A stretch of DNA of 64,000 nucleotides. It comes from a virus. The stretch covers positions 1 through 64,000 of the IMG/VR virus record IMGVR_UViG_3300021405_000009. The stretch is one strand, 5' to 3'. Under the pieces are notes generated by a model. The model was given only the letters and a program-made list of their open reading frames with translations. It did no database searches and was not told the origin of the DNA. The position numbers and the translations under genes were made by a program. This document shows, piece after piece, positions 4,187 through 51,211 of this stretch. Position 1 is the stretch's first letter. Each line of letters opens with the position of its first letter.

Positions 4187-4188
4187 CG

Positions 4189-9147: not shown

Positions 9148-9157
9148 GGGCTTCCTT

Positions 9158-9511: not shown

Positions 9512-10242
9512 TACGATAACCCGCGACCTTGGCGTCCCATCTGGGTGTTTTGCACTCCTGACTGCTGCGTCGTCGCCGAGTTCACCTGGTCGGCCAGGAA
9601 GATGTTGACCTGGCTGTCGGTCAGTGCGCCGTTGGCGGCAATCACCTGGCGCAGGAAGGTAGTCAGCATCGCGCCATAGCGGCTGTCGTTGATGTACTCG
9701 TAAGTCTTCGCCATGAAGCCGGAGTTGTAGAGGTTCGAGAAGTAGTCAGGGATCGGTGCCCAGGTGTCGGCAGTGGTCTTGAACAGCGGGCAGGCAAGCT
9801 GGTAAGTGAGGGTTACGGTGTAGACCTTATCGGGTGGCGGAATCAACCGGAAGGTGATGTTGCCGTTACCGTCGTCGAGCCGCGCTGCAATGCGAGTTGG
9901 CAGGTTCTGCTGAGCCTCTTCGCTGAGGTTTAGTACAACGTCCAGCTCATGCACTGCTGGTGCCGTTCCGGTATTGTCGGTGACGGTCGCCTTCTCCAGC
10001 CAGCCAAACGTTCCCAGACTTTCTTCGTAGTCCTGCACTGCGGCGATCGTCGTGAAGGTAGCGGTCGAGCGGTTCCAGCGCCAGGCAAAGGGCGGTGAGA
10101 GCATGAACTGCCGCACCCAGTCGCCAATGGTGAACGCCGGATCATTCGTCCCGCTGAACGTCAGTGGGGCGTTCCTCACGAAGTTCTGCGCCACGTTAAT
10201 GGTTCGGCCGATCGTGTTCGTAGAGTTCGGGGGATTCGACAT
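9511..10242 (-). CDS. Head-tail adaptor/tail tubular protein A-like (paralog 2)
   Basis: WRWNR, QDY, GWLE, FRLIPPPD and APIPD motifs. Confidence 0.6.
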   Translation of the reverse strand: MSNPPNSTNTIGRTINVAQNFVRNAPLTFSGTNDPAFTIGDWVRQFMLSPPFAWRWNRSTATFTTIAAVQDYEESLGTFGWLEKATVTDNTGTAPAVHELDVVLNLSEEAQQNLPTRIAARLDDGNGNITFRLIPPPDKVYTVTLTYQLACPLFKTTADTWAPIPDYFSNLYNSGFMAKTYEYINDSRYGAMLTTFLRQVIAANGALTDSQVNIFLADQVNSATTQQSGVQNTQMGRQGRGLS

Positions 10243-10250
10243 GGCGTCCT

Positions 10251-10294
10251 AAGCAAGAACGGAGCGAGCAGGCTTTCGTTCCCGCCCGCTCCGT
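10251..10294 (-). terminator. Probable intrinsic terminator/attenuator
   Basis: 14-bp stem ACGGAGCGGGCGGG/CCUGCUCGCUCCGU followed by UCUUGCUU on the minus strand. Confidence 0.5.
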
Positions 10295-10316
10295 CGCTGT
10301 GAATGTGTTGGTTTGG

Positions 10317-10817
10317 TTACCGCGTAGCCATCGCCTTGGTCGGGTCCTTGAAGCTGCGTTGGCCCGCGCGCGACATGCGGTTCGCGCTCTTCTTGCTGAA
10401 CCACTGCGCGTCGGCTTCATCGTTCGACCAGATCTGTTTCTGGCAGTTGGTGCAGATCCCCACGACGACGCCGGTGTCGAGCTGGTGCATCACAAACGAT
10501 TGCAGTTGGCCCTGGAATTCGCTCAAGGCGTTCGAGCCCTGCAGGTGAGCGCAGTGCTTTCTGCTGTATTCAATTTCGGCGTTGATCCGGGTGTGGACCT
10601 CGCGCATCTGCTCGCGCATGACCTTGTCGTTCTGCTCGGTGCGCGGATCGACGTAAGGCTTGCGCGATTCGATAAGGGCGTTGGCGATCACCTTACTTGA
10701 GGCTTCGACGGCCTGGCTGACCGAGGCGCTAATCAGCGCCTGCAGTTCATCCATCCCGATCGAGATCTTGCCGCTCTTTACTTCAGGGGCGGCCTTTGCT
10801 TCGTGAACTTCTGGCAT
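10317..10817 (-). CDS. Hypothetical protein with CxH/CxxC metal motif
   Basis: ATG at 10817 after GGAG; CAH...CTNC. Confidence 0.6.
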   Translation of the reverse strand: MPEVHEAKAAPEVKSGKISIGMDELQALISASVSQAVEASSKVIANALIESRKPYVDPRTEQNDKVMREQMREVHTRINAEIEYSRKHCAHLQGSNALSEFQGQLQSFVMHQLDTGVVVGICTNCQKQIWSNDEADAQWFSKKSANRMSRAGQRSFKDPTKAMATR

Positions 10818-10853
10818 GTGTGCTTCTTCTCCTGGGCTAATCCGGCCCACTGG

Positions 10854-11537
10854 TTAGTCTGCTGTTTTGTTGTTACGGTATTCCCAAAGTCGCCGGTACC
10901 ACACGGTCGATGCCGGTCCATCAGCGCGGCCAAACTCACGATCGCTTTGTGCTTCAGTCAGCAAGCCGGTGCGAATCAGCCTGAGTAGCACGGTGCGCCA
11001 GCCGCGTATTCGCTCGCGCACGGGAATGTCGCGCGCGTCGAACTCGTAGATGCTGTACTCCGGCAACGCCCCCGAGGGGCAATAGAACAGGTACTCAAAG
11101 TCGCGGCCGTCGAGCTGGGGCTGGGGGCACGGGTAAGTGCGAAAGATGGCAACACAATTCTCGATGCGGCCGTCGGTGTAGTGAAGGCAAGGCACAAGCT
11201 TTCGTACTCTGCCGAGAAAGTTACCACTCTGCATGGCGCGGCCCACGCGGGCGCGGTCGTCACGGTAGTCATCCTGGTTGGCCCAGCGCTGCCGCCTTAC
11301 GGCCTCAGAATTGTAATTACGCTCGCGCAGGCGCGCCGTGTGCTCCTCGGTGCTGAGCCGAGGAGCGGATGCGCAGGTAGTGCATAGATCCTTACGCCCA
11401 TCTCGATAGCTGCTGTCGCGATTGAAGAAGGCGTAAGGAAGGATGCGGAGACAACCGATACACTCTTTACCCAGGAGTTCGTTACTTTCAACGACCTCCT
11501 GAGAGACAACATTGGCTGGATCGTTTATTTCGTGCAT
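10854..11537 (-). CDS. Hypothetical protein with N-terminal Zn finger
   Basis: CIGC...CTTC; in operon. Confidence 0.6.
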   Translation of the reverse strand: MHEINDPANVVSQEVVESNELLGKECIGCLRILPYAFFNRDSSYRDGRKDLCTTCASAPRLSTEEHTARLRERNYNSEAVRRQRWANQDDYRDDRARVGRAMQSGNFLGRVRKLVPCLHYTDGRIENCVAIFRTYPCPQPQLDGRDFEYLFYCPSGALPEYSIYEFDARDIPVRERIRGWRTVLLRLIRTGLLTEAQSDREFGRADGPASTVWYRRLWEYRNNKTAD

Positions 11538-11549
11538 GGAGGGAAAGGT

Positions 11550-12227
11550 TTAGAGTTGGGTGATCGAGAATTCACTGACGGCCGCAACCCCGCCGACTCC
11601 GTTACCCCAGGTCGAGGTAGCGCAGAACTGGATGTTCGCTACGGCGGCAGCAGTCGCGGTAGTGGGGTTGGTGGTGGCCGCCCAGGTGTTGTAACTCCGG
11701 GTGGTACCGTTGAAGTCGTACCAGTACTGCCCGATGACTACCTGTGCCAGCGAGTCCCAATGCAACTGCGCTTCGAGGAGAAACCCGAAGGGCGCTACGG
11801 ACGTGGCTTGGGCGGCGGCGCTGACGCTGGTTAAAGCCACACCAGCCTTGGTCGTGCCCAGATATAAGGTCGCCTTGTAGGTGTTGCCCGCGTTCGAGGC
11901 CGGGGTAATGGTGCCTGCGAGCCGCACCAGGAAAGGCTTGTCATTGTCAAAGACGCCGCTGTTATACGGCACCATCGGCGCAGCGGCATATCCCTGCCGC
12001 GCAAACGAGGCGTCGAGTAAGGATGGGTTAATCGTCTGATCGATCGGGCTCTGTGAGCCCAAGATCAGCGACTGCGTCGGGAGAGAAAGCACGGCAATGA
12101 CGGAGGTCGAGGCCGAGTCGTTCCCAATCTTGAATTCCGTTTCAGTAACGGCCGCCAGAGTCTGGGAGAGTATCTGGTTTCGTCCGGTTCCGCCGTAGTA
12201 GGCAGCAATTGCACCTGGTCCTGACAT
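11550..12227 (-). CDS. Virion structural/decoration protein (paralog family A)
   Basis: Shares QTLAxVTET, LSxPTQ, PFxxRxxG and WGNxVGG..EF with 16852-17529. Confidence 0.55.
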   Translation of the reverse strand: MSGPGAIAAYYGGTGRNQILSQTLAAVTETEFKIGNDSASTSVIAVLSLPTQSLILGSQSPIDQTINPSLLDASFARQGYAAAPMVPYNSGVFDNDKPFLVRLAGTITPASNAGNTYKATLYLGTTKAGVALTSVSAAAQATSVAPFGFLLEAQLHWDSLAQVVIGQYWYDFNGTTRSYNTWAATTNPTTATAAAVANIQFCATSTWGNGVGGVAAVSEFSITQL

Positions 12228-12262
12228 GAATGGTTCCTTTAGTTAACTTGGGTTTTGTGTTT

Positions 12263-12898
12263 CTAGGTAATTTCCTGGCCCCTTGCAGATGACGCCGGGC
12301 GCGGCTTGAAGATTGGTTCTGCGTCGAGCTTTCCATTCTCGATATAGATCGCGGCTACACCGCCTGGTTCAACCAGGGTGTAGTCGTGGTGGCCGCCGAG
12401 CATGGTTCCAACTTCGTGGATAATGCTGGAGTGAGCGACCAGTAATATGGGCTCGCCGATATGTAGTCCGATCCGGATCGCCTCAACGATCAGCGGGCGG
12501 ATGCGGCTTTGAAATTCGTAGAGCGATTCGCCGCCCGGCAAGGGGATGTCCGGATGCTGGACGTGGTAATCGACTAACTTGATGTTCTCGGCATTCTTAG
12601 GCTGTCCACCCAGGTCGCCCACATCCCACGCGCGCAGCCGAGGGTTCTCGGTCAGCATGTTGCGGTCAATGCCTTTGTGGTCGGCGATGATGTGCGCGGT
12701 CTCGCGCGTGCGCTTGCGGTCCGAAAGCACGATGCCAGATACGGCAATCGGCTCCAGATAGTAGGCGAGCTTATGCGCGTCGCGCTTACCCCTGGCGTCG
12801 AGGGGCGCATCGATCGGCCCCCGGTACGCGTCCTTGGCATTCAGGTCCGTGGTACCGTGGCGCGCCAACAGCACGAGCATGTGCTTTTCGCTAGGCAA
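12263..12898 (-). CDS. Histidine phosphatase (phosphoglycerate mutase family)
   Basis: LARHGTT catalytic motif, SDRKRTRET, PGGES, LVAHS. Confidence 0.9.
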   Translation of the reverse strand: MPSEKHMLVLLARHGTTDLNAKDAYRGPIDAPLDARGKRDAHKLAYYLEPIAVSGIVLSDRKRTRETAHIIADHKGIDRNMLTENPRLRAWDVGDLGGQPKNAENIKLVDYHVQHPDIPLPGGESLYEFQSRIRPLIVEAIRIGLHIGEPILLVAHSSIIHEVGTMLGGHHDYTLVEPGGVAAIYIENGKLDAEPIFKPRPASSARGQEIT

Positions 12899-13253
12899 CA
12901 GTTTCGTCCTGGGTAAGATTGGCGGTGGTGAAGGAAGCTTTCAATGCGCCGCTAGGCTGTGAGTTAACCTCGTCAAGGGGCGCTTCGATCGCGCTCTCGA
13001 CAACGGACTGCACTTCGTCTTTGGCGTCGCGTCCAGCTTTAACTTCAAGCAACAGTGCGAACAGGTCGGGATGGTTGACTTCGGGGTAGCCCTTGTCGAG
13101 CATCAATTCAATGGCAGCCTTGCGCCATTCGCGCGTGGCTGATTCATTGCGTGCCAGGTCGCGGAGGATGGGGCCGGGGAGATGGCCGAGCTGGTCGTTG
13201 CGCTGGGCAAATAAGCGCCGAGCATTGTCGGCGCGGGCAAGGGATTCATTCAT
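12891..13253 (-). CDS. Hypothetical protein
   Basis: Overlapping operon gene. Confidence 0.6.
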   Translation of the reverse strand: MNESLARADNARRLFAQRNDQLGHLPGPILRDLARNESATREWRKAAIELMLDKGYPEVNHPDLFALLLEVKAGRDAKDEVQSVVESAIEAPLDEVNSQPSGALKASFTTANLTQDETVA

Positions 13254-13256
13254 GGT

Positions 13257-13637
13257 TTAGCCGAGCAGGATGAACTCAATATTCGTCGCTAGCGCCGACG
13301 CTGTAACGGATAGGGCTGTGATGCCGCTGGTCGCATTGGTCTCGACATAAACAATGGTCGAGCCAGGCTGCAGAGTGATGATCGTGGCCGTCGAGCCGCC
13401 GTTCGGCGTCCAGGTTACGGTTACCGTCGCGGTGGTGCTCAGGTTCTTGATGTAGAGGAACTGCGTCGGGCTGAGGGGAAGACCGAGCGTAGTCGGACTG
13501 GTGCCGACTGCCAGGCCCTGCGCGTAGTCGAAGATAGTGCCGAGGTACTGAAACACCAGCGCCTTGGTAAGTTGGACGCTGCCCGACAGGTTGTCGGTCA
13601 TCGTGATGTTGCCGTTAAGCGCGCCGGTGATAGGCAT
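13257..13637 (-). CDS. Beta-rich structural protein (capsid decoration candidate)
   Basis: Thr-rich, FLYIKNLS..TLQPG jelly-roll-like pattern; close to MCP. Confidence 0.5.
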   Translation of the reverse strand: MPITGALNGNITMTDNLSGSVQLTKALVFQYLGTIFDYAQGLAVGTSPTTLGLPLSPTQFLYIKNLSTTATVTVTWTPNGGSTATIITLQPGSTIVYVETNATSGITALSVTASALATNIEFILLG

Positions 13638-13660
13638 CTATATATCCTCGTGGTCGATGG

Positions 13661-13876
13661 TTATGAGATGGAAGGCAGGAAGATGCTCAAGAGCCAGAGG
13701 ATAGCCACGACGACAACGATGACGGTGACCACCTTGCGAATGGGTTCGGGCACGCCGAGATAGCCCATCGCCCAGAAAAGCAGGTAGCAGAGCAGGGCGA
13801 AGACGATGCCGATAATAATGAGATGGACCAGGCCGCCTATAGCAATAACAGGGGCGGTGAGCAGGGCAAGAAACAT
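13661..13876 (-). CDS. Small 2-TM membrane protein (holin candidate)
   Basis: Two hydrophobic helices separated by VPEPIRK. Confidence 0.55.
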   Translation of the reverse strand: MFLALLTAPVIAIGGLVHLIIIGIVFALLCYLLFWAMGYLGVPEPIRKVVTVIVVVVAILWLLSIFLPSIS

Positions 13877-13935
13877 TGAGGGCTCCGAGCAGTACTGTAT
13901 GTGCGGAGATTAGAGACGGTATTCTCCGCAAGGTG

Positions 13936-13963
13936 GCGGGGCGTGCCTATGAACACGCCCCGC
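13936..13963 (-). terminator. Hairpin downstream of major capsid gene
   Basis: Perfect 10-bp stem GCGGGGCGTG/CACGCCCCGC; weak U tract. Confidence 0.45.
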
Positions 13964-13980
13964 TCCTAGTTAGTCCAGGG

Positions 13981-14967
13981 TTAGCTGGAGCTGGTTTCAG
14001 ACTGCAGGCGACGGATCACCATCGTCGAGCCCGGCCGCAGCGTGTTGGTGTACTTCACGTTGTAGCTGACCCATCCACCGATCTGGCGAGCCGGATCGGA
14101 GACGCTGCCCTGGGCAGGAGCTTCCTGCACCATGAGGCGGTAGTTCTTCTCGCCGCTCTCGGGGTTTTTGCCCAAGAAGACGCTGAACAATGCGTCGTCG
14201 GAGAAGAGGTAGGTGTTGTAGTAGGTGTTCGAGCTGATGGTCACGGACGGGGCCGTGGTGGTCTGCTTGAACCGTACTCCCGCGAACTCGATGACATCCT
14301 CGTTCGGCAGGGGCGCGAGCAACTTCTGCGCCATGGTGTCGTTGCGCTTCAGGATGTCAGTCAAGCCGTTGAACGAGGTATCGTTCAACACATCGTGAAC
14401 CACGAACGGGTGGATGATTCCGCCCCAATATCCGTCCTTAGTCAGGGGACGAGCATTGACGCCAGCGAGCTGCTGCACGGCGGTACGAATGTTCGACGCG
14501 GTCAGGTAGGAGCCGTTCGCCAACTGGATGTTGACGGAGCTGTCTACGCCGGTCGCGGCGTCGGCCGTGAGCTGTACGAGCGAGTTGAGGGTGAGGGCCA
14601 GGCGGTAGTTCAGCTCGGTCGCCAGGTTCTGAAGCAGCGAAGGATCGTCGATCGCTACATCCATTGCCAAGTCGGACGAGTTGATGAAGTCCGCGTACTG
14701 CCCGATCGTCGCCACGATCTTCGTGGACGATTCAGTGATCGGGGACCCAACCGTGCCTTCCGCTGCCTGGTTGATGTTGCCTGCGAGCAGGGAGTAAGTG
14801 AAGAACTGAATCTGGTTGCCTGAGCGAAGAGGAAGCGGTTTCTGCTTCGTCATGCTCATAAAGGGAACCTGAGCCTTGAGGTTGGGAATCGCCTGCCGCT
14901 CGTAGTAGATGGCCACTAAGTTCGGCAACGCGCCCGAGGTCAGAATTGAGGCCGGTGAGAAAGCCAA
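13981..14967 (-). CDS. Major capsid protein (N4-gp56 family)
   Basis: PLPLRSGNQIQF, EGTVG, IGQYADF, IIHPFVVHD, GVRF and DPARQIG motifs; follows scaffold. Confidence 0.85.
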   Translation of the reverse strand: MAFSPASILTSGALPNLVAIYYERQAIPNLKAQVPFMSMTKQKPLPLRSGNQIQFFTYSLLAGNINQAAEGTVGSPITESSTKIVATIGQYADFINSSDLAMDVAIDDPSLLQNLATELNYRLALTLNSLVQLTADAATGVDSSVNIQLANGSYLTASNIRTAVQQLAGVNARPLTKDGYWGGIIHPFVVHDVLNDTSFNGLTDILKRNDTMAQKLLAPLPNEDVIEFAGVRFKQTTTAPSVTISSNTYYNTYLFSDDALFSVFLGKNPESGEKNYRLMVQEAPAQGSVSDPARQIGGWVSYNVKYTNTLRPGSTMVIRRLQSETSSS

Positions 14968-19820: not shown

Positions 19821-20027
19821 TTATGGGGTTGAGCTGTTCTTCTGGTCGTCGCGCTCCGCTTGTCGCCCCTGGGCGTGAGCTGCGGTGAGCAGTTCGTCGA
19901 GGCGGCTATTTAAGCTGAGATGGATCTCGGTGATGGACTTGCGGTTCCGCAGGTTCAAAAACAGAGACAGTAGCGACGCGATGGTCGGCGGGATGGCCGC
20001 GATGATGGCAACCCAGATGGGGATCAC
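19821..20027 (-). CDS. Small membrane-anchored protein (lysis accessory candidate)
   Basis: N-terminal TM followed by EIHLSLNSRLDEL coiled coil. Confidence 0.55.
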   Translation of the reverse strand: MIPIWVAIIAAIPPTIASLLSLFLNLRNRKSITEIHLSLNSRLDELLTAAHAQGRQAERDDQKNSSTP

Positions 20028-20573
20028 TTACGAGCGGCCAGAAGGGATACTGGCCTTGCCTTCAGGAACTTCTTTGACGCGGGTCTGGCTGTAGCCTTTG
20101 GCTTCAATCATCCCAGTTGCGAGGTTCACGCTTTCCGGAATAGAAATCTCGCCGCCCTCTTGATTGGCTTCGCCCTTGTTCACGCGAACCGGGAAGGCTG
20201 AGGCGATCTTTCCAGATCGTCCACCACTCTCCCAACTCGTCGGGCTGCCAGAACCTTTCGGGCCAGGGCCGCCGTCTTCGAGATGGCGCGGGCCACACTG
20301 GTTTTCGCTTTGCGAGGCCAGCATGTCAGTGCCTTCGGCAGTGCCATGAGCGCCGCTCTGGCCGGTAGCGTCATCCACATCGGCGACCGGAAAGTCCGAG
20401 CCCTTGGTCTTATAAGGATCGAACTGCATGGGGGTCATCGGAACGAGGTCGTCTTTACCGCCACCGTCCGAACTCTGGCCGTGGCCTTCCGTCACGCCGC
20501 CCTTGCGCGCGCCGCTGGGACCTTGGTTGACCTTCTCGTTGTTCATATTCTTTGGAGCCTTACTCTGTGCCAT
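20028..20573 (-). CDS. Disordered Gly/Ser/Lys-rich hypothetical protein
   Basis: In operon, AAGGA RBS. Confidence 0.55.
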   Translation of the reverse strand: MAQSKAPKNMNNEKVNQGPSGARKGGVTEGHGQSSDGGGKDDLVPMTPMQFDPYKTKGSDFPVADVDDATGQSGAHGTAEGTDMLASQSENQCGPRHLEDGGPGPKGSGSPTSWESGGRSGKIASAFPVRVNKGEANQEGGEISIPESVNLATGMIEAKGYSQTRVKEVPEGKASIPSGRS

Positions 20574-41774: not shown

Positions 41775-41780
41775 GTGACT

Positions 41781-42151
41781 CGGGGTACTTGGGGGTAGGC
41801 CAGGGGGTAAGGCCGGGGTATAAGCCTCGACAAAAGCGTAAAGTAGTACTCCGCCAGACGCGAAAAGAACAACACGAGTTCCCACCGAACCCACCACAAA
41901 CGAGCTAAGTGCATGAAAACAAGCGCAATCGGCAAATAGCGGCGAGCCGATTGCTAAGCTTTTGTCTAGGTCAGCGTTGCCGTTGCCGTTCGTTGCCGAC
42001 CTGTGTCAGGATTGACACACTGCCAACATGGTGCAGCATCGGCCGCGCCATGACGGCGAACAAACGGCGAACGAAAAACTGCTAGCGAACGAACGGCGAA
42101 AGCGAAGCAAAAGCGAAACAAACTTTTTTCGCTTTGTTTTCAAGTACTTGC
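41781..42151. repeat. Non-coding repeat cluster (probable genome terminus/packaging region)
   Basis: Four GGGG(G)TA units, imperfect inverted repeat 41904-41925/42130-42151, CGTTGC x3, ACGGCGAA x3 plus further GCGAA units. Confidence 0.5.
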
Positions 42152-42156
42152 CGACT

Positions 42157-42201
42157 ATTTAAAAAATTGTGTTGACAAACTGCGGCAATTCGTGAAATAC
42201 C
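42157..42201 (+). promoter_or_regulatory. Early promoter (UP-like A tract, perfect TTGACA, degenerate -10)
   Basis: ATTTAAAAAATTGTG-TTGACA(42172-42177); -10 only weakly matches. Confidence 0.55.
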
Positions 42202-42213
42202 GATCATGCAAGC

Positions 42214-42255
42214 CGGGGTTGCAAACGCACCCCGAGATAGCGGCTCTTTGACAAC
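42214..42255 (+). promoter_or_regulatory. rrn-like boxB hairpin plus boxA antitermination site
   Basis: Hairpin CGGGG(U)UGC-AAAC-GCACCCCG, then GCTCTTTGACAAC, one mismatch to rrn boxA GCTCTTTAACAA. Confidence 0.65.
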
Positions 42256-42263
42256 CCAACAGT

Positions 42264-42690
42264 CCGACAGTTCGGCGTCGGCGCTTAGTTCAGCCCAGCC
42301 CAGATGTGGCACGGCGTGAGCGGAGGGATAGCTTCTAAGCGCGGGCAACGGTGATTCTGTCGGCACGATTACTGGGATACTCCGCGTCGTGAGACGTGAG
42401 CGAGTCCTGACACGGTAATCGTCTGACCCATGGCTCTGAGAAACCTAGCGCATGTGGTCAGTCTAAGCCGGGACCATGGTCAGCGTTCAGCCTAGCGAGG
42501 CAATGCGAGCACGGACACAGCAACGAATAGCTAGAGCGCAGCATGTTATGCCACCATGGCACAGCGAAACCCAATGCTAACTCTTGTGGGGCACGACTAA
42601 TCACCGTGCCCTACTCTTTGAGCGCCTAGGTAGCTAGGCGTTGAAAGAGTAACCAAATAGGCTTGCGGATAGCCCTAAGCCGCAGATAGG
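42264..42690 (+). ncRNA. Large structured leader/ncRNA
   Basis: About eight stem domains, mostly abutting, with G-U pairs and GNRA loops; no plus-strand ORF in the track. Confidence 0.55.
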
Positions 42691-42698
42691 AATACACC

Positions 42699-43037
42699 AT
42701 GAAAAACCCGAACAACAACGTCGTCACGTCCGCTGTCCCCACACCCGAGGAATACGCCGCTCTGTTGGCCAAGGTCACCGAACTCCAGTCCAAGGTGGAC
42801 CGGAAGAAACGGCAGGACTCTGGCTCAGTCACCCACAACGGATTAAAGCAAGTCGTGTCCGAGAAGGGCGGGGTCAGCGTGTATGGATTAGGGCGCTTCC
42901 CGGTCACGCTATACGCTGAACAGATGCTCAGACTGTTGGATGCTGGCGCGGACATCCGCACGTTCATCGCCGAGAACATGGCCAGCCTGAAGTTCAAGCC
43001 CGCGAAGGATGAGCAAGCTGAAGCGGCTGCCGCCTAA
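42699..43037 (+). CDS. Conserved hypothetical protein (SEKGGVSVYGLGRFPVTLY family)
   Basis: Recognisable motif after an N-terminal coiled coil. Confidence 0.75.
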   Translation: MKNPNNNVVTSAVPTPEEYAALLAKVTELQSKVDRKKRQDSGSVTHNGLKQVVSEKGGVSVYGLGRFPVTLYAEQMLRLLDAGADIRTFIAENMASLKFKPAKDEQAEAAAA

Positions 43038-43365: not shown

Positions 43366-43472
43366 AGCGCATGGCCAACTAGGCTCCGGCCTAGCAATGG
43401 GCTCACCCGAGTCTGTTGCTAGTCCGGATCACGGGCTAATCCGCCGCAGGGCGTTAACCTGGGAGTAGAGTT

Positions 43473-43616
43473 ATGCAACGAATTGTCCGCAAACCAAAGT
43501 TCAACCCGCGCAACAGTGACGGTTCATTCAAGTCCATCGACCAGATCATGCGCGCAACCATGACCGTATTAGAATATGGGCGTATGCTTGCCCAGACTCG
43601 GAGGCCAGGGTATTAA
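43473..43616 (+). CDS. 47-aa early protein (not in ORF track)
   Basis: MQRIVRKPKFNPRNSDGSFKS...; GGGAG RBS after hairpin motif. Confidence 0.5.
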   Translation: MQRIVRKPKFNPRNSDGSFKSIDQIMRATMTVLEYGRMLAQTRRPGY

Positions 43617-43837
43617 TGCGCAAGCCCAAAGTGCCTGACTATGTGCCCCAGCAGTCCATACGCTGGCTGATGGGGCGAGTGCATGTCGGTACGCCTGATG
43701 CTGAGGTTGAGGCCGATATGCGTAAACGGTGCAGTAAGGCCACCGAAGAACAGGCGGCAGCTTGCGTGGAGTTTGCGCTGGCTTGCCACCATGAGAACCA
43801 AGGGCTGTACAGGTCTGTGATGTCTGGGAGGCTGTGA
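43616..43837 (+). CDS. Early hypothetical protein
   Basis: TAATG overlap; HVGTPDAEV motif. Confidence 0.65.
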   Translation: MRKPKVPDYVPQQSIRWLMGRVHVGTPDAEVEADMRKRCSKATEEQAAACVEFALACHHENQGLYRSVMSGRL

Positions 43838-43940
43838 TGTTATCCCAATTCCACGCTGCGCATCCAGTGCTCTACGCCATTGCACTGTGCTGCGTCTACG
43901 TCGAGGCCATGCTTATTTCGATGGCCATGAGGAGGTGACT

Positions 43941-44390
43941 GTGCCTAACTATGTGGTCAGCGAAGAACACGCCGCGAAGATAGCGGAATGGATTAAAGCG
44001 CGCGGCGGTATCGCCATCTGGGAGTCGATCAGCCTAAACTGTCCGGGCGAGTCGATGACTACGCCTGTCCGCAAAGCGGACGGAACTCCAACCACCAAGC
44101 CAGACTGGAAGCTGGGGAACACTCCAGCGCGGATCATTACCGACATGGCTGAGGTTACTGTGTCGCAGGATGTCGAGGTCAAGCGCTTTCATGTGGCCGT
44201 GCGTTTTGGAGCGCAGGGCCTAGCTCTCAAGGTCACCGATGGCGGCACACGCCGTATTCAGCGTGAGGTTGCCAAGGCAGGCGAGGGAGCGTATTACGTG
44301 TTTGACTATGGCAGCGAGGAGAATGCTGTCATCATGAAGCCAGCGAAGCTGATCCCGCTGACTGAGTGGCTAACCGCCGTGGGGCGTTAA
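43941..44390 (+). CDS. Early hypothetical protein
   Basis: GTG after GAGGAGG; WIKARGGIAIW. Confidence 0.7.
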   Translation: MPNYVVSEEHAAKIAEWIKARGGIAIWESISLNCPGESMTTPVRKADGTPTTKPDWKLGNTPARIITDMAEVTVSQDVEVKRFHVAVRFGAQGLALKVTDGGTRRIQREVAKAGEGAYYVFDYGSEENAVIMKPAKLIPLTEWLTAVGR

Positions 44391-44473
44391 ACCTGGGGGA
44401 TGTACAATGCAGAGCTTTATGGAATGGGTGCATGAATACCTTGCATCCAAAGACCGCCGTGGGGCGTTAAACC
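44373..44473 (+). repeat. 21-bp direct repeat ACCGCCGTGGGGCGTTAAACC
   Basis: Copies at 44373-44393 and 44453-44473. Confidence 0.85.
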
Positions 44474-44491
44474 ATGGGAGCACACCAGCCA

Positions 44492-44791
44492 ATGCCAATG
44501 ACGCTACAGCAAGCTGCCAAGGAAGCGATCGACTGTCAGAACGCAGCCAACCTGTCCGGAGTATTGGACAGCTTTCACCGGGTAGTGATGGAAGTGATCT
44601 GGCCCGAGGCCCGAAGGCAGGGTAAGGGCACAGACTTCGTGAATACCCACCCCGTTGTCTATCTGTTCCTCGACAAACTCACCAGCCTGAATCACAGGCA
44701 ATGCCTGTGCCACGACAACATGGACAATTACCACGAGGCGTACACTCAGGCGCAAGAGATGGCGGCCGAGATCTACTGCGACGCCAGTTAG
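44492..44791 (+). CDS. Early conserved phage protein
   Basis: AIDCQNAANLSGV..NTHPV..DKL. Confidence 0.7.
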   Translation: MPMTLQQAAKEAIDCQNAANLSGVLDSFHRVVMEVIWPEARRQGKGTDFVNTHPVVYLFLDKLTSLNHRQCLCHDNMDNYHEAYTQAQEMAAEIYCDAS

Positions 44792-44844
44792 CCGCGAGCA
44801 TGAGGCGTAGGGCACAGCCTATGCCGATTGCTGGAGGCTTAACT

Positions 44845-45213
44845 ATGCGATACGGCAAAACAGTACACGTGTCAAAACTACACGTTGGCGATGTGGTGCG
44901 CCCAGTTCGCGGGCCATCATTCCCAACGGCGTCCAAGGCTGGCGATGCGGATGACTTCCGCGAAGGCTACGATGCCATGGTTGTGGTCTTTGAGGACGAT
45001 AAGTACCTCACGTTCCACAGACCGCACATCGAAGTCTATCAGGACGGCATTCCCAGCGTGAATCACGTCACAGTCGGGGTTGAGATCGTGAACATGGTGC
45101 CCAGAGACCATACGGGGCTGTACTACGAAGTCCTTGCCTACGGCCCGGCTCACGTGGACGACAAGGGCCACCAAGTCAGCCACTGGCAAGTCAGCCACTG
45201 GGAGAAGGTGTAA
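44845..45213 (+). CDS. Early hypothetical protein
   Basis: GGAGG RBS; MRYGKTVHV. Confidence 0.65.
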   Translation: MRYGKTVHVSKLHVGDVVRPVRGPSFPTASKAGDADDFREGYDAMVVVFEDDKYLTFHRPHIEVYQDGIPSVNHVTVGVEIVNMVPRDHTGLYYEVLAYGPAHVDDKGHQVSHWQVSHWEKV

Positions 45214-45341
45214 GCTACCCTAGCCTTGACTGGCTAGGTGGATGCTGGGATAACGGAACTTATGGACCCGTGGGCTGTTATGAGCAGCCTGTCCCAGTGT
45301 CCACTTAGCTTGTCCGGTAAGCGGACAGGTGAGGAGGAGTT

Positions 45342-45542
45342 ATGGCACAGTTCGAGTGTCGTATCATCGAACGCCTAGTTCGCGTCTATCGGGTTGAGGC
45401 CAAAGACGCGGATGAGGCGGATATGTTATTGCAGATCGGAGACAGTCGGTTGTATCAGGTCGATAGCTTTCCGATTGACTCCGAAGACGGCGAAGCATGG
45501 CACGAAGTGGCTGGGGAGTACGGGGAGGCGCAATGCCTGTAG
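45342..45542 (+). CDS. Early hypothetical protein
   Basis: GAGGAGG RBS; YRVEAKDADEA. Confidence 0.65.
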   Translation: MAQFECRIIERLVRVYRVEAKDADEADMLLQIGDSRLYQVDSFPIDSEDGEAWHEVAGEYGEAQCL

Positions 45543-45781
45543 TGATCGAGCGTGACCACATTGCAGGTGCGCGACTACTGACGCTGAGGTCTGCGTTTGG
45601 ATTAGAGCTGAAAGGCATGTCCAGACGCGGGCGCTCGGTGTACAGCATCGTGAAGCGGGAGTTTGGGCTTCGCGGGAATCAACAGCGGGTATACGACCAG
45701 TTCGATACGCTCGTTACTGAGCGGACAGGAGTGGCGCGTCATGGCGAACCAACTGGACCACGCCCAGCTCTACGCCCTTGA
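45533..45781 (+). CDS. Early conserved phage protein
   Basis: LELKGMSRRGRSVYSIVKREFGLRG. Confidence 0.65.
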   Translation: MPVVIERDHIAGARLLTLRSAFGLELKGMSRRGRSVYSIVKREFGLRGNQQRVYDQFDTLVTERTGVARHGEPTGPRPALRP

Positions 45782-46142
45782 AGTGTATGCGCGTGAGCAT
45801 GGGCGCAACTGGAAGTCTAAGCTCAACCTCGACTGGATGACTGGCGGCACTACTGGAACACTCCAGCAGATACGCAATTCATTCGGCCCAACCTGGCTCA
45901 CGCGATTCAATCTCAAGCGCGAGCTGGCGTCAGACTGGTATCGGCGCGTATCCTGCGACCAATGCCAGATGCTGGCCATTAATGGGGTAGCCTGTCACGA
46001 GACAGGTTGCCCAAACATGGGCGCGCGATGGGATCGGGAGAATCAGGTCTGGGTGAAACAGCGCAAATGCTTCGACTGTGGCTATATGGTCGATCTGGAT
46101 GACATGTGCTGCTCTGCGCCCATGGAGGGAGAGGACGAGTAG
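45741..46142 (+). CDS. Two-domain early protein (helical domain plus Cys-rich Zn domain)
   Basis: HGRNWKSKL..LQQIRNSFGPTWL fused to CDQC..INGVACHETGCP. Confidence 0.7.
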   Translation: MANQLDHAQLYALEVYAREHGRNWKSKLNLDWMTGGTTGTLQQIRNSFGPTWLTRFNLKRELASDWYRRVSCDQCQMLAINGVACHETGCPNMGARWDRENQVWVKQRKCFDCGYMVDLDDMCCSAPMEGEDE

Positions 46143-46345
46143 CAGAAGGGATTGCAGTATTCTTCGGGATGGCCCTTGTCCAGCAAGCACGCCAGTATCC
46201 CCTCGGGCGTAGGGCAAGGCTTCCCGCATTTAGTGGTCCAGATAATCATGAGAGGACGGGAGTTGAGATAACGCGCGGCATTAAAGCGCGTCGATGCCAA
46301 GGTACTACAGCCGGGCCGCAATGCCCCTAAACTAGGAGGAGAGAA

Positions 46346-46558
46346 ATGAAGCGAGCAGGCAAGCCTGAGATCATCAACGCGGCTGCGAATGTTGTGGAAG
46401 CGCAGATCGCCGTTGACCATGCGGAGAAAGCTGGCGACGATGCCAAGCGCTATCGCGATGCACTGGCAAGTTGCGTTTACAGCTTGCGGTGGCTGATAGA
46501 GCGCGACAGGCCGGAGATTACAGCACGCTTCCGCAGTGCCGAGGCCGTAACCAAGTAG
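46346..46558 (+). CDS. Early hypothetical protein
   Basis: AGGAGG RBS. Confidence 0.6.
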   Translation: MKRAGKPEIINAAANVVEAQIAVDHAEKAGDDAKRYRDALASCVYSLRWLIERDRPEITARFRSAEAVTK

Positions 46559-46634
46559 CGCGGCAGTCCTGCCTTACTCGCTAATACAGGAGCTGGGCAG
46601 GGTCAGCCGTACTAATGGCTGGGAAGGAGTAATC

Positions 46635-47198
46635 ATGTCCGAGTACACGGAGCAAGCGGAGGAATTCATGCGCAAGCATGAGCTAACATTCCGCGTCGTT
46701 CACATCGGCAGCGATTGCCCGACGTTCTGTGAAGATAGGGTCAAGGGAATTGCGATGGACAAGCTCGACGAGTTCCCGCGCAAGTCCCACATTCATGGCC
46801 ATCACTATCTTTGCACGATTAGCGGGAAGGAGCGGAGTGCATTCCAGATTGACTTCTGGAATAGCTATGCCGACGAGTTCCACAACTGGGCACTCAAGCA
46901 TCGCATAGCAGCGATGCCGTGGGCTACAACCATCTCCAGCATGTCCTATAAGCTACAGGACATGATTAAGGCGGAGCTGAAGAAGGGCAAGCAGCGCTCC
47001 GAGCCCACTCCCTACGATGTCCTGGCTTGCATCACAAAAAGCGAGCCGGGTAGCTTTGAAGAGTTTTGCGGAGAGTTCGGCTACGATACCGATTCCCGCA
47101 AAGCCGAACAGGTCTATCTTGCCGTGCAGGCCGAGTGGTCGAAGGTCCGCAGGTTCTTCACGGCGGAAGAGATCACCGAGATGCAGGAGATCTCATGA
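46635..47198 (+). CDS. Early conserved phage protein
   Basis: PTPYDVLAC..SFEEFCGEFGYDTDSRKA. Confidence 0.75.
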   Translation: MSEYTEQAEEFMRKHELTFRVVHIGSDCPTFCEDRVKGIAMDKLDEFPRKSHIHGHHYLCTISGKERSAFQIDFWNSYADEFHNWALKHRIAAMPWATTISSMSYKLQDMIKAELKKGKQRSEPTPYDVLACITKSEPGSFEEFCGEFGYDTDSRKAEQVYLAVQAEWSKVRRFFTAEEITEMQEIS

Positions 47199-47392
47199 AG
47201 TTGAAGCTGGTCATCACGATGGACAACGCAGCCTTCGAGCCTAACAACGGCGTAGAGGTTGCTCGCATCTTACGCCAACTCGCCGACCAAGAGGAAGGTA
47301 ACCAACTGTCGCCCGGCGATAAGTGGAAGTTGCGCGACATCAACGGCAACACAGTCGGCGAAGCTGTTATTCGTCAAAGCCGCCGGAGGTAG
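47195..47392 (+). CDS. Early conserved phage protein
   Basis: DNAAF..EVARILR..LRDINGNTVG. Confidence 0.7.
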   Translation: MKLKLVITMDNAAFEPNNGVEVARILRQLADQEEGNQLSPGDKWKLRDINGNTVGEAVIRQSRRR

Positions 47393-47394
47393 CA

Positions 47395-47622
47395 TTGAAA
47401 ACAGTAACGATCAGCGAGCGGAGTAAGCACAAACTACTCCACATCGAAGCACCGGGCTGCATTGTCAACATCACAGTTGGGCTAACTGACAGTAGCCATC
47501 ACGCTATAACTGCGGTCCACATCAAATGCGATGAGTCAGGCGAAGAATCGAGTCGCTTGCCTGACTTTGGCGACACAACCCATCTCGGCGTCCGCGTGAG
47601 AATGCTGAAGCCGCGACAGTAA
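47395..47622 (+). CDS. Early hypothetical protein
   Basis: TTG after GGAGG; LHIEAPGCIVNI. Confidence 0.6.
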   Translation: MKTVTISERSKHKLLHIEAPGCIVNITVGLTDSSHHAITAVHIKCDESGEESSRLPDFGDTTHLGVRVRMLKPRQ

Positions 47623-47663
47623 ACCCACTAACCGTGCATGGCACGTTAAACAGGAGAGCGCCT

Positions 47664-48521
47664 ATGGAGAATGCGAAGCCAAGGTGCCCGTATCTCGCGA
47701 TCAACATCCCCGGTGAGCGTCCCTTTGTGGTCGAACGACGGTTGTACGAATCGGCCACGCGGGGCATTCACATCGTGGACACCACGCTCACCAAAGAGCT
47801 GGTGAAGGATCATGGCGAAATATGGGTGCTGACCGTGAAGCACGACAGCGGCAGGGTGCGCGGAACACTCAAGTTCTACAGCCTGCTGCAAACCAAGTTC
47901 AAGGGTACCTACTGGATATTCAAGCGCGACTTGGCCGATTGGGCCGCGCGCGCGTTCAAAAAGAAGTGCGCCAGTGTGGCTGGTCCGCCAAGCAAACACG
48001 CGAAGCAGATTGCCCGGCTGGAACGTGAGCTGGCAAAGCTGTATGCTCATCAGCCAAAGAATCCACTGCTGCGGGAGCCCAGCGTGTACCACATGGGCCG
48101 CGAGTATACCGAGCGATGGTACGGTGATCGAAGCCAGCGAATGCAGTTGGCTCTAATCGGTGGCTGGGTTCTAAAGGGAGTGATTACGCCTGTTAAGGCG
48201 TATGAGCTTCTGGAAGAGGCTGGCTACAGCGTGCGGCGATTCAGTAAAGTCACGCCCAACACGCGCAGGCACTACGATGTCCACTTCGACGTGGACTATT
48301 GGAAGAAGCTGTACTGTTTTGCGTCGGGGCTGGAGGACAGGCGCAGAACGTTTGTAGATACGCCGTTGCCGCAACAGCTCACCGAGCACCGTGAGCACCT
48401 GATCCAGTTCATCGAGAAGAGACGAGAGATTGTCTCCATCGAGAACCAGATCGCATCGATCAAACTGTTGGCCGAAGCTGTTGTACCAGCGGCTAACGAG
48501 ACTGGGGTGGTGTACGCATGA
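47664..48521 (+). CDS. Early hypothetical protein
   Basis: AGGAG RBS after hairpin motif; 285 aa. Confidence 0.7.
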   Translation: MENAKPRCPYLAINIPGERPFVVERRLYESATRGIHIVDTTLTKELVKDHGEIWVLTVKHDSGRVRGTLKFYSLLQTKFKGTYWIFKRDLADWAARAFKKKCASVAGPPSKHAKQIARLERELAKLYAHQPKNPLLREPSVYHMGREYTERWYGDRSQRMQLALIGGWVLKGVITPVKAYELLEEAGYSVRRFSKVTPNTRRHYDVHFDVDYWKKLYCFASGLEDRRRTFVDTPLPQQLTEHREHLIQFIEKRREIVSIENQIASIKLLAEAVVPAANETGVVYA

Positions 48522-48763
48522 AGCCGGACAAGGTCAAGATCACAGTGCAGGTACTAAACGGTGCCACGGGCGAAGTACGCGAAGTGGTTGCCAATGTCAC
48601 AGCCGTCAGCGAGCAGCACGCGGTTAACGTGTTGTTTGCTCGGGCGCGGCGTGACGATTACTACTACCGCTTTCTCGCATCGTCCGGCATCATCGGCCCA
48701 CAACATGAGCACGCAAAGGCCGTGGAGCATGAGTCGATGACGTATTGGGCGCTGGAAGGCTAG
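48518..48763 (+). CDS. Early hypothetical protein
   Basis: ATGA overlap. Confidence 0.6.
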   Translation: MKPDKVKITVQVLNGATGEVREVVANVTAVSEQHAVNVLFARARRDDYYYRFLASSGIIGPQHEHAKAVEHESMTYWALEG

Positions 48764-48771
48764 GGGGTTAA

Positions 48772-49224
48772 GTGGAGGATAAAGTCACCACGATCACCGT
48801 CACGCCAAACTACGAGGCGATCTTCGAGCAGTTCAGGCGAGATGCACAGCTTCACCTGAACTCCTTCACCTACAACCAGAAGAAAACTTTCACGCGCAGC
48901 GAGGTCTATGCATTCGTAGCCGCAATGCGTATTGCACTCGGAGCGGCTACCACCATCCCGAACATCGAAGCATTACGCACGGTGTTGGACGATGGCGGGG
49001 AGAAGATGTTCGCCGTGCTGCAGGAGGAGCAAGAGCCAGTCGAGACGGTCTGCGTTGTCTGCAACGAAACCAACCTGCTAGAGCATGGGGAAGACCTGAA
49101 GACTCGCGTCTGCGATGACTGCAAGCGCGTGGGTTCGGTCATGCTCATGTCCGAGTACAACCTGCTCCCTGTGGCAGAGCTGGAGCCATTGCGAAGGAGG
49201 ACGATTGAGCAGAACAAGCGCTGA
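48772..49224 (+). CDS. Early protein with C-terminal Zn finger
   Basis: CVVC..CDDC. Confidence 0.6.
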   Translation: MEDKVTTITVTPNYEAIFEQFRRDAQLHLNSFTYNQKKTFTRSEVYAFVAAMRIALGAATTIPNIEALRTVLDDGGEKMFAVLQEEQEPVETVCVVCNETNLLEHGEDLKTRVCDDCKRVGSVMLMSEYNLLPVAELEPLRRRTIEQNKR

Positions 49225-49384
49225 CGTGTACTTAGGCGGTCGCCTAATCGACGGCTACGACTACGCGAATCAGGCATGGGTCGTAGACGGGAAGTATGTG
49301 CGCTGCGGGCATCCGGAGTCGATGGCTTGCGGATGCTATGGGCGCGTTCATGCCGGAGAGGAGACTCGTGCCAGTGCGGGATAG
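49205..49384 (+). CDS. Small Cys/His protein
   Basis: TTG after AAGGAGG; GYDY..QAWV..CGHP..CGCYG. Confidence 0.6.
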   Translation: MSRTSADVYLGGRLIDGYDYANQAWVVDGKYVRCGHPESMACGCYGRVHAGEETRASAG

Positions 49385-49653
49385 AAAGTGGTATCTCGTT
49401 GGGTATGGCGGTATCGGATGCGGCCATTACCACAAATCAGCAAGCACAGCACGGCGGTGCTTGCTGCGCTTCCGCGCGTGCGTTAGCGACCGAATGCGGA
49501 GATATTGGGGCGTCTACGCGATGTCGCGCAAAGGCGGCAAGTTGCATCATGTTAGGCTGAAAACTGCATCACGCAAACCTTGAGCACTCATCCAGCGCAC
49601 TGGCCAAGCAGTGCTCTGGAGTGGCTGCTCCACAGCCAGAAAGGAGGACCTAA

Positions 49654-49824
49654 ATGAAGGCTAGCGATGTAGTCTACAAGCTACAGCGCATGATTAAAGC
49701 TCACGGTGACTTGGCGGTCGAGGTTGAGACCGATCAGGCCATTGTGCCCGCACAAGGGATTCGTCTGATGCGTTCCGATTCGGAGCGCGGGGATACCATC
49801 ATCATCAGGGGAGGCCAACAGTGA
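49654..49824 (+). CDS. 56-aa early protein (not in ORF track)
   Basis: MKASDVVYKLQRMIKAHGDLAV; AAGGAGG RBS. Confidence 0.65.
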   Translation: MKASDVVYKLQRMIKAHGDLAVEVETDQAIVPAQGIRLMRSDSERGDTIIIRGGQQ

Positions 49825-50420
49825 AAAAGAAAACTAAGGCGCGTATTAAAGCGCAACCAAAACCTGCCACGGTCACCGTCACGCTGTCATCGAATGACTT
49901 CGGTCAGATGATGGACGGACTACGCGAGCGGCAGACCGCGTGGAGGATCACTGCCGAACACTGGCGCGGCGAGGAAGATCATGCCGAGGCCATGGAGTAC
50001 GGGATACAAGAATGCTCAGGCGAAGACGAGGCCCAGAAGATCGCGGATCATTACCAGAAGCTGATCGCCGATCTGGAAGGGCAGCAGAAATGGCGCGGCG
50101 ACTTCGATCTGCTCGAAAACGTTGCCGCCATCTCCGCCGAACTATGGGGTGGAGATACCAAGCGCAACTTCTACGTCCGCTTCGGCGCGGAGCTGAGCGG
50201 ATTCCCCGGCGTGTGGGCGTATTCCGTTCAAGCGGCGCGCGCTTTCACGAAGGCGGAGGAACGATTCGCGAAGGAGATCGGCAGGAAGCCGGAACACTCC
50301 TACGAATATCTCGACGCGATCCTTCACTTTGCCGAATGGCTGGCCACAGCGGAGACGCTGCCAACCACTGCCGAGCTTGAGGCGAAGGCATGGGGAGCAT
50401 TACTGGCAGCGCGCAACTGA
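49821..50420 (+). CDS. Early hypothetical protein
   Basis: GTGA overlap. Confidence 0.65.
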   Translation: MKKKTKARIKAQPKPATVTVTLSSNDFGQMMDGLRERQTAWRITAEHWRGEEDHAEAMEYGIQECSGEDEAQKIADHYQKLIADLEGQQKWRGDFDLLENVAAISAELWGGDTKRNFYVRFGAELSGFPGVWAYSVQAARAFTKAEERFAKEIGRKPEHSYEYLDAILHFAEWLATAETLPTTAELEAKAWGALLAARN

Positions 50421-50438
50421 AGCCAGAAGGGAGAAGAA

Positions 50439-50861
50439 ATGACGGAGAGCCAGGAACAAACCATTCAGATGCTCAAGTGGTTCCGCGACTGCCACGCCAA
50501 CAACGGCGTACCGCAGAGCTGGTTCTATAAGGGGCCAGCGGACCTGTTGCTGCGCGAGGGCAAATGGTACGACGAGGGCCATGTGATTGACTGGAAGCGC
50601 AGCGTACCGCAAGCATGTTTCCGCAACGCGGCTCTGTACGCCATGCTGCACCGCCTGCCTTACATCGAAGGCTACGCGACCGGCATTATTCCAGTGCATC
50701 ATGCGTGGTGCCTCGACGCCGTGGGCCGCGTGTGCGAGGTCACATGGAAGGAGTTGGGCACCGATTACTTCGGCGTTGCGTTCAAGCCGAATCTGGTCAC
50801 GCGCGGCGCTGTGCTGTTCAATGAACAGGATTGCTCGGTATATACGCGAAAAGTGCGGTAA
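50439..50861 (+). CDS. Papain/transglutaminase-fold protein
   Basis: QACFRNA, YIEGYA, HHAW and EVTW motifs (Cys-His-acid triad). Confidence 0.6.
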   Translation: MTESQEQTIQMLKWFRDCHANNGVPQSWFYKGPADLLLREGKWYDEGHVIDWKRSVPQACFRNAALYAMLHRLPYIEGYATGIIPVHHAWCLDAVGRVCEVTWKELGTDYFGVAFKPNLVTRGAVLFNEQDCSVYTRKVR

Positions 50862-50899
50862 AATCCGTCCGTTAACCGGACGTTAAACTGGAGAACCGA

Positions 50900-51211
50900 A
50901 TGCCCGTTGAAATCACGTGCGAGTCGCCGAAGGGTGGCGCTGCGAAGCTGGGGAAGGATGTGACTGTGAGCTACGCCGTAGCTTCGGTCGCCGAATACCC
51001 AGCCTCTGAGCTTTTCTACGCCTGGGTCAAACTGCCCAACGGAAAGACTGTATCGCTGTTCGTCAACCGCGAGACTGGGCTGGTCGTGGTGGACGTTGTC
51101 CGCAAAGATGAGCGCGGGGGGAACGAGATCCTGCGCACAACCGTGGACAGGGTAGTCATGCCAACCAAGCGCCAGCTCGACGCAGCGGAGGTTGTGGACC
51201 CTACCTCGTGA
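50900..51211 (+). CDS. Early hypothetical protein
   Basis: GGAG RBS after hairpin motif. Confidence 0.65.
   Translation: MPVEITCESPKGGAAKLGKDVTVSYAVASVAEYPASELFYAWVKLPNGKTVSLFVNRETGLVVVDVVRKDERGGNEILRTTVDRVVMPTKRQLDAAEVVDPTS

Follow-up and report, generated by a model that had tools for sequence, protein, structure and literature searches.

Several small genes in the early region of an uncultured soil phage begin behind the same kind of short hairpin leader, which raises the question of its role. The phage is represented by a single 98,239-bp IMG/VR virus contig (IMGVR_UViG_3300021405_000009, ~59% GC), the first part of which constitutes the 64-kb stretch analyzed here (64,000 nucleotides; hereafter, the window). 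The leader has the form C-[4–6 bp GC hairpin]-YUAA(A)C-N1–3-GGRG-N7–11-AUG and occurs in six same-strand copies (m1–m6), the stems of which begin at 43442, 44375, 44455, 46313, 47633, and 50866. Each copy consists of a C, a perfect Watson–Crick stem of 4–6 bp with at least three G–C pairs, and a 3–6 nt loop of unconserved sequence. Directly 3′ of the stem stands TTAAC, TTAAAC, or CTAAAC, followed 1–3 nt on by a GGRG-type Shine–Dalgarno (SD) sequence and 7–11 nt further by an ATG. All six copies listed in the original prediction, which had been made from the letters of this DNA alone and had marked each copy by the C just 5′ of its stem, are present, and so is the 21-bp exact repeat noted there for the pair at 44374 and 44454 (m2 and m3; the repeat is common to 44373 and 44453, 80 bp apart).

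A start-associated hairpin leader in the early block

The motif is a genuine start-associated leader, small in size and statistically secure. The full pattern was found six times on the plus strand within 7.5 kb, whereas simulated 98-kb genomes (first-order Markov, 200 runs) contained a mean of 0.25 matches on both strands and three at most; a GC hairpin abuts by chance at 3.8% of random positions. A strict descriptor returned the six plus-strand sites, all within 43.4–50.9 kb, plus one minus-strand site at 13989, which lies in the stop-codon region of the putative capsid gene, is followed by a strong hairpin, and was set aside as a coincidence; no other real copy was found in the 98-kb contig. 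The scan of phages with a covariance model, which had been proposed as a check, succeeded within the genome, in that a model built from m1–m3 only ranked m6, m5, and m4 at positions 4, 5, and 7 over the whole window (both strands, 128 kb). It reached no copies in other phages, the six-copy model giving no further match in 560 kb made up of the phage's own genome and 24 other loci.

The predicted combination of a fixed single-stranded hexamer and SD with a hairpin of variable sequence held up well, as four different stem sequences all keep pairing and the loops are free. The alignment fitted to the model has its four outer pairs formed in every copy (100%; 24/24 cells), with two-sided changes at three of the four pairs, compared with 25–58% pairing in slid registers, in a small sample of six paralogous copies from one genome and with an alignment that leans towards the structure. 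The description of the hairpin as covarying is overstated for paralogues of a single genome, three of which have one stem. The closing C–G/G–C pairs are identical in five copies, and the variation resides mostly in the inner stem. The 4-bp stems are marginally stable and partly formed in the predicted ensemble, those of m1 and m4 being outside the minimum-energy fold. We also noted a semi-conserved 5′ flank (CTAAYC or TAAAATC) that was absent from the earlier description; in some copies, the helix can be lengthened by its UAA(C), which pairs with (G)UUA and leaves a bulge of one or two bases. Over 26 nt, m1 and m2 are 73% alike, and m5 and m6 are 77% alike.

The distance from motif to start is fixed at 17–25 nt, whereas that to the upstream stop codon varies from overlap up to 170 nt, and the motif therefore goes with the start rather than with the stop. 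It was found only where a gap precedes the start, and five copies head clear genes after an intergenic gap (Table 1). Accordingly, the claim that the motif precedes six early start codons stands as to its association with starts, its strand specificity, and its confinement to the early block, and is weakened in one case: five of the starts are solid, and the one after m2 (ATG 44407) is doubtful, because the open reading frame (ORF) there has poor coding statistics (GC content at third codon positions, GC3, 0.47). Copy m2 is located inside the 3′ end of gene 43941–44390, where its hairpin codes for the last residues, TAVGR, and the TAA of its core provides the stop codon. A stop-codon role for the core TAA in general was rejected, as it is in frame with the upstream gene at m2 only.

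Table 1. Coordinates of the six leader copies and of the other early genes that follow a gap
Feature	Span	Strand	5′ flank	Stem	Loop	Core	SD-type sequence	Start codon	Downstream gene and remarks
m1	43436–43475	+	CTAATC 43436–41	CGCC 43442–45/GGCG 43450–53	GCAG	TTAAC 43454–58	GGGAG 43461–65	ATG 43473	47-aa gene, 43473–43616
m2	44370–44409	+	CTAAC 44370–74	CGCC 44375–78/GGCG 44383–86	GTGG	TTAAAC 44387–92	GGGGG 44395–99	ATG 44407	72-codon ORF, coding quality doubtful
m3	44450–44494	+		CGCC 44455–58/GGCG 44463–66	GTGG	TTAAAC 44467–72	GGGAG 44476–80	likely ATG 44492, 19 nt past core	99-aa gene, end 44791
m4	46307–46348	+		GGGC 46313–16/GCCC 46323–26	CGCAAT	CTAAAC 46327–32	GGAGG 46335–39	ATG 46346	70-aa gene; m4 at 3′ end of 203-nt intergenic gap
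m5	47628–47666	+	CTAAC 47628–32	CGTGC 47633–37/GCACG 47641–45	ATG	TTAAAC 47646–51	GGAG 47653–56	ATG 47664	285-aa gene; homologues P0002–P0006 begin at same Met
m6	50859–50902	+	TAAAATC 50859–65, incl. upstream stop codon	CGTCCG 50866–71/CGGACG 50877–82	TTAAC	TTAAAC 50883–88	GGAG 50890–93	ATG 50900	103-aa gene
Other five gap-preceded early genes (43900–49653)		+		6–8 bp hairpin ending 0–8 nt before SD		no UUAAAC		43941, 44845, 45342, 46635, 49654	

The leaders without the conserved tail extend this picture. A hairpin of at least 6 bp occupies the −26 to −9 window of 10 of the 32 early starts, against a background of 9% (P = 3e-4), and the operon follows a simple rule between 43.4 and 51 kb: a hairpin stands against every uncoupled ribosome-binding site, and half of these hairpins share the UUAAAC tail. 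Several of the pre-SD hairpins of early genes without UUAAAC hold G·U pairs on the sense strand. The presence of a hairpin at every uncoupled early start, in some cases with sense-strand G·U pairs, suggests that RNA rather than duplex DNA is recognized.

A candidate RNA tag and its competitors

We consider it most plausible, with a probability of roughly 40%, that the element is an RNA tag at early ribosome-binding sites that is read by a trans-acting protein, for joint control of the tagged gene clusters. The six copies would then be RNA-level leader modules on an early polycistronic transcript, each placed at the first gene after an intergenic gap and composed of a short GC hairpin, free in sequence and with C–G/G–C as its closing pairs, followed by the fixed single-stranded UUAAAC abutting the SD. 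The junction of helix and UUAAAC would serve as the docking site of one factor, which may be an early protein of the phage or an RNA-binding protein or endoribonuclease of the host. Because the junction sits 1–3 nt from the SD, such a factor could occlude or cut the message there, and thereby jointly set the ribosome loading or the cleavage of the tagged cistrons. The result would be a common post-transcriptional tag on some of the early gene clusters, comparable to the T4 RegA and RegB systems, in which one factor shuts off many early messages at their ribosome-binding sites through RegA operators or RegB cleavage at GGAG. To our knowledge, the RegA and RegB sites have neither an obligatory hairpin nor UUAAAC; no homologue of RegA or RegB came to light in this phage, no search having been aimed at one. 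Action in RNA, reading by a factor, and the direction of the change in expression are what we infer, with the fixed geometry (hairpin-6 nt-N1–3-GGRG-N7–11-ATG) and the location of all copies on the coding strand within one 7.5-kb block speaking in favour. The marginal stability predicted for the 4-bp stems would likewise be typical of sites needing a bound partner.

Several observations weigh against this explanation. The loops and bulges, which are the usual protein contacts, are not conserved; the copies number only six, three of them with the same stem; the pairing was observed in paralogous copies of one genome; and m2 lies within a coding sequence and ahead of a doubtful ORF. No Pfam or PHROG function was assigned to any of the early proteins tested, leaving no candidate factor among them, a search of the ESM Atlas with the first early protein gave no lead on function, and no match in the phage was obtained for RNase III or for Cas6e (PF08798) and Csy4 (PF09618), Cas6-type endoribonucleases that cut a hairpin at the base of its 3′ side. 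The predicted accessibility of the ribosome-binding site shows no gain in the tagged genes (0.50, against 0.45 in the other early genes; p = 0.15). Thus, among the roles originally suggested, that of a translational enhancer was not borne out by the predicted accessibility, and that of a protein-binding or nuclease site is the most plausible, though with no candidate factor found in the phage.

The main rival, in our view unlikely, is an autonomous cis-acting leader that works with no dedicated factor. Its hairpin could insulate the ribosome-binding site from RNA lying upstream or, after cleavage by a host RNase E-type enzyme in the A/U-rich flanks, become a protective 5′ or 3′ end, while UUAAAC could act as an A/U-rich standby or enhancer segment for the ribosome (S1) in a GC-rich message. 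It is known that mRNA is stabilized by 5′ stem-loops and that cleavage takes place between the genes of the T7 early operon, and the present element fits such a role in occurring only at gap-preceded genes, where translational coupling is impossible, in the hairpin beside the ribosome-binding site of all such genes between 43.4 and 51 kb (10/10), and in UUAAAC and the 5′ CUAAYC being the sole A/U-rich single-stranded stretches of the leaders. The predicted accessibility given above is no higher than in other genes, however, the 4-bp stems are weak, and the fit to the RNase E consensus (RN|WUU) is poor by inspection. Moreover, a generic A/U-rich enhancer would not require all six copies to have the hexamer exact and placed exactly at the junction.

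A role at the DNA level, as a recombination handle or cassette junction for the shuffling of early genes, had also been put forward, and appears rather improbable. Exchange could be homologous, or carried out by a site-specific or single-strand recombinase that would treat the flanks as a miniature attC (RYYYAAC … GTTRRRY). By inspection, GTTAAAC fits GTTRRRY and the CTAAC flank fits the inverse core. The hints come from m2 and m3, the 80-bp tandem pair with the 21-bp exact repeat, and from the gene upstream of them (43941–44390). Its 149-aa product, for which no Pfam or PHROG match was found, is one of a family with at least 161 members, which occur in numerous soil phage contigs that are otherwise unrelated, and has a hypervariable C-terminal tail past PLxEW; a few sources call relatives of this family ‘ribosomal protein S6’, which looks like a mis-annotation. 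A homologue 97% identical to this product (P0008) diverges exactly after EWL, which corresponds to the 5′ edge of m2, and one with 76% identity (P0010) ends in TAEGR, as expected from the coding of the same hairpin with another loop. The translated spacer between m2 and m3 (…FMEWVHEYL…) resembles the variable C-terminus of the upstream family (PLxEWL…; P0009 ends in PLMEWLHHPEKGDE), and may be a relic of a second allele of the 3′ end of that gene. These protein-level clues fit an exchange at the element; they are anecdotal and all indirect, and the proposal gained no further support. The shared sequence of ~10–21 bp is short for homologous exchange, and a purely DNA-level role leaves the tight spacing to the SD unexplained. 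As to enzymes, no tyrosine recombinase (PF00589; the control was positive in 14/14 genomes) and no IS200-type (Y1) transposase were detected in the genome.

The integron attC site is a folded palindrome of 57–141 bp between an inverse core (RYYYAAC) and a core (GTTRRRY), with R″/L″ and L′/R′ boxes on which IntI acts. The present element resembles it in having core-like flanks around a folded palindrome and in the beginning of the next ORF soon after the core. It differs in measuring 20–27 nt with no room for two binding boxes of the attC kind, in a core that fits in four of the six copies and misfits in m4, in the lack of an integrase, and in the several genes that lie in an interval. We regard it as highly improbable that a miniature system for single-strand recombination, integron-like or of the HUH type, uses the elements as its junctions in a phage early region. 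If it did, incoming blocks of early genes would be spliced onto a resident UUAAAC–SD leader at a hairpin flanked by RYYYAAC-like and GTTRRRY-like cores, which would explain both the tandem scar at m2/m3 and the loss of homology where m2 begins.

It also seems hardly probable that the copies are non-functional relics of the local duplication of one leader. The recent duplicate m2/m3 and the likeness within the pairs m1/m2 and m5/m6 would be expected from such a history; the flanks and downstream genes are nevertheless unrelated, the stems differ and yet keep pairing and hexamer, and the position relative to the SD is strict. A transcription signal is very improbable, whether as a promoter recognized by an RNA polymerase of the phage or by a modified one (e.g., an N4-type DNA hairpin) or as a pause or terminator hairpin. 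There is a formal likeness to the promoters of the N4 virion polymerase, which combine a hairpin with a conserved downstream hexamer. Further, a strong 10-bp GC hairpin directly 3′ of the putative major capsid gene (13935–13962, minus strand) is also without a U tract, so that the terminators of this phage and its host may be U-less. However, the N4-type hairpin promoter (a 5–7 bp stem, a 3-nt loop, and a giant virion RNA polymerase) was rejected: the stems here have 4–6 bp, the loops vary between 3 and 6 nt, and the giant virion proteins match no PHROG. A transcript starting 6–12 nt past the hexamer would have its conserved SD removed or truncated. The promoter consensus scan gave no site at any copy, the flanks having no −35/−10 pair; the intrinsic terminator scan was negative, with 0/6 copies hit, no U-tract enrichment, and UU alone after the stem, the 4-bp stems being too weak for termination; and neither a T7-type RNA polymerase (in a search without a positive control) nor a sigma factor was detected in the genome. 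Transcription signals are unlikely because of this lack of a sigma-70-like promoter, of U-tract enrichment, and of such a polymerase or sigma factor.

Extremely improbable, and largely refuted for the 98 kb, is a target of a phage-encoded antisense RNA, since the GTTTAA and GTTTAG sites are without exception part of coding sequence or the opposite strand of the motif itself, and the sole outlier in a genome-wide duplex scan against the six targets was the motif's own antisense strand; a small RNA of the host, or one from genome sequence outside the contig, may still pair there. An Rfam scan of 41.5–52.5 kb (E ≤ 1) returned only a spurious mir-610 match elsewhere in the region, and no preQ1-I riboswitch; a frameshift heptamer, a sigma-54 box, and a preQ1-like tail gave no fit by inspection.

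Described start-associated sequences and leaders of other phages

The start-associated sequences (SAS) of Cluster K mycobacteriophages and their extended inverted repeat (ESAS) were described in 2011 (PMC3203893) and taken up again in the Yasnaya_Polyana survey of 2025 (PMC12699233). Like the SAS, the present element is a short one-orientation repeat that is confined to the non-structural part of the genome, stands a few nucleotides before the starts of some genes, which belong to unrelated families, contains the SD core, sometimes overlaps an upstream stop codon, and is unexplained in function. The inverted repeat that often precedes the SAS has its counterpart in the hairpin. In placement, the two agree: six plus-strand copies in the 43.4–50.9 kb early block, with the SD inside and the ATG 7–11 nt on. 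In sequence, the two differ. The SAS is a fixed 13-bp GGGATAGGAGCCC with 11–19 copies, whereas YUAA(A)C and GGRG are fixed here in six copies, and the element does not match the consensus GGGATAGGAGCCC even at ≤2 mismatches, with no resemblance beyond GGAG. The ESAS has imperfect 17-bp arms of conserved sequence with a 4–13 bp spacer, in which departures break the RNA pairing, for which reason its authors favoured DNA binding (PMC3203893). In contrast, the arms of the present element are 4–6 bp long and free in sequence, with pairing kept in every cell of the alignment (24/24). The closest described kind is the Cluster K SAS/ESAS, and the present element, judged by sequence and arms, stands outside that family.

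The promoter-early stem-loop (PeSL) cassettes of T4-type phages (Arbiol et al. 2010, PMC2839356; Comeau et al. 2014, PMC4122927) are comparable as small repeated stem-loop motifs between early genes of a plastic region, where they were proposed as exchange points. Unlike the present element, a PeSL is composed of a terminator-like stem-loop and a near-consensus early sigma-70 promoter, and no promoter is detectable here; the conserved part here abuts the SD, and recombination, documented for PeSL, is hinted at in the present case.

Relatives carrying the motif were sought widely. It is absent from the Tunturiibacter phage Tunturi_3, the G001 record, and 13 IMG/VR loci that share the family of gene 43941–44390. 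The early region had no match among GenBank phages by megablast, and two early proteins had none there by tblastn. Scans of IMG/VR with five early or large terminase (TerL) queries yielded just one unrelated phage and two structural-region fragments, a JGI metagenome scan a single 1-kb fragment, and two scans of GTDB genomes no relatives. The pattern CGCC-N4-GGCG-TTAAAC-N0–3-GGRG had 31 single matches in IMG/VR, as many as chance would give, and never occurred twice in one locus. For the 285-aa gene after m5, five homologues of 59–62% identity were obtained, two of them on contigs of 97 kb (P0003) and 98.5 kb (P0005); all begin at the same Met, and none has an N-terminal extension that would translate the motif.

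The 13 IMG/VR loci have no early gene in common with this phage other than the 149-aa family, and the terminase of this phage was lacking in 5/5 records tested among them. Several of these loci own different start-associated leaders. In three of them (L045, IMGVR_UViG_3300050821_003884; L047, 3300031823_000002; and L048, 3300045012_000066), CACAC-N-TAAAAC-N3–4-TTTACAGGAGA-N5–9-ATG occurs before small genes in 12–13 copies per 20 kb, and L045 has a second leader, ending in ACCGGGAGG, in 17 copies; no T7-type RNA polymerase was detected in these three records, in a search without a positive control. In L053, one and the same leader, TTAAGGAGTCAGTCATG, heads ten genes between 6432 and 15315 and in many cases follows a strong hairpin. 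In L049, 7–9 PeSL-like cassettes are found at 1293–14302, each with an ATGAAC…GTTCAT stem-loop and a TTGACAAAC-N17-TAnnnT promoter. The same 157-kb virus record also has a CRISPR-like array at 19905–20402 (8 repeats of ~36 nt, 66-nt period). The L047-type leader (TAAAAC, a short spacer, TTTAC, and AGGAGA) resembles the present leader minus its hairpin (CTAAC [hairpin] TTAAAC AGGAGA), be it through homology or through convergence. The 149-aa gene family travels between phages, gaining a different, phage-specific leader in each. Because unrelated phages with the same gene use their own lineage-specific leaders, it seems to be the phage, rather than the gene, to which the tags are adapted.

Genome setting and meaning for early-gene control

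The source contig is classified as linear in IMG/VR, with a completeness estimated at 77% by CheckV; its final ~100 nt (98139–98239) duplicate positions 48–148, a short way inside the opposite end (1–148), instead of the first nucleotides. The minus strand from 1 to ~39.7 kb carries the late and structural genes, including an SU10-type portal and the large terminase. The closest terminase of a cultured phage, with 30% identity, is that of Tunturi_3 (97.6 kb), which infects Tunturiibacter (Acidobacteriota), and a host among the Acidobacteriota is plausible from this similarity. The plus strand from ~39.9 to 52 kb contains small genes without assigned function, split by a non-coding stretch of ~900 nt at 41.8–42.7 kb. 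This stretch (41780–42700), located ahead of the tagged genes, has two TTGACA boxes (42172 and 42249) and long A/C-rich repeats (CGAACGAACGGCGAA…), and probably serves the early genes as promoter and leader region. Judged by GC3 and SD, ~26 genes were counted within 42.7–52 kb, many of which overlap or abut the preceding gene.

The early block has a second repeat, ATTAAAGCGC, with exact copies at 43361, 43992, 46280, and 49845 and copies with one mismatch at 43612, 47918, and 49693, all on the plus strand and within the 43–50 kb region. At ≤1 mismatch, the window has 10 matches against 2.9 expected, a number attained in 0/100 shuffles. Some copies are placed in coding sequence, one over a stop codon, and one over a stop/start junction.

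The SAS, first described in 2011, still lack an explanation, and the present case adds a further lineage-specific variant from soil phages of a group about which very little is known and whose hosts are probably Acidobacteriota. As a small element with six copies in one genome, it adds on its own little testability to the SAS question. What is conserved in this variant is structure, in the form of any stem, together with a six-base tail beside the ribosome-binding site. Because a structure and a single-stranded tail are conserved, recognition at the RNA level is indicated more clearly than in the mycobacteriophage case. The private leaders that unrelated phages place before one shared early gene suggest that tagging of this kind forms a general layer in the control of early genes, specific to each lineage.

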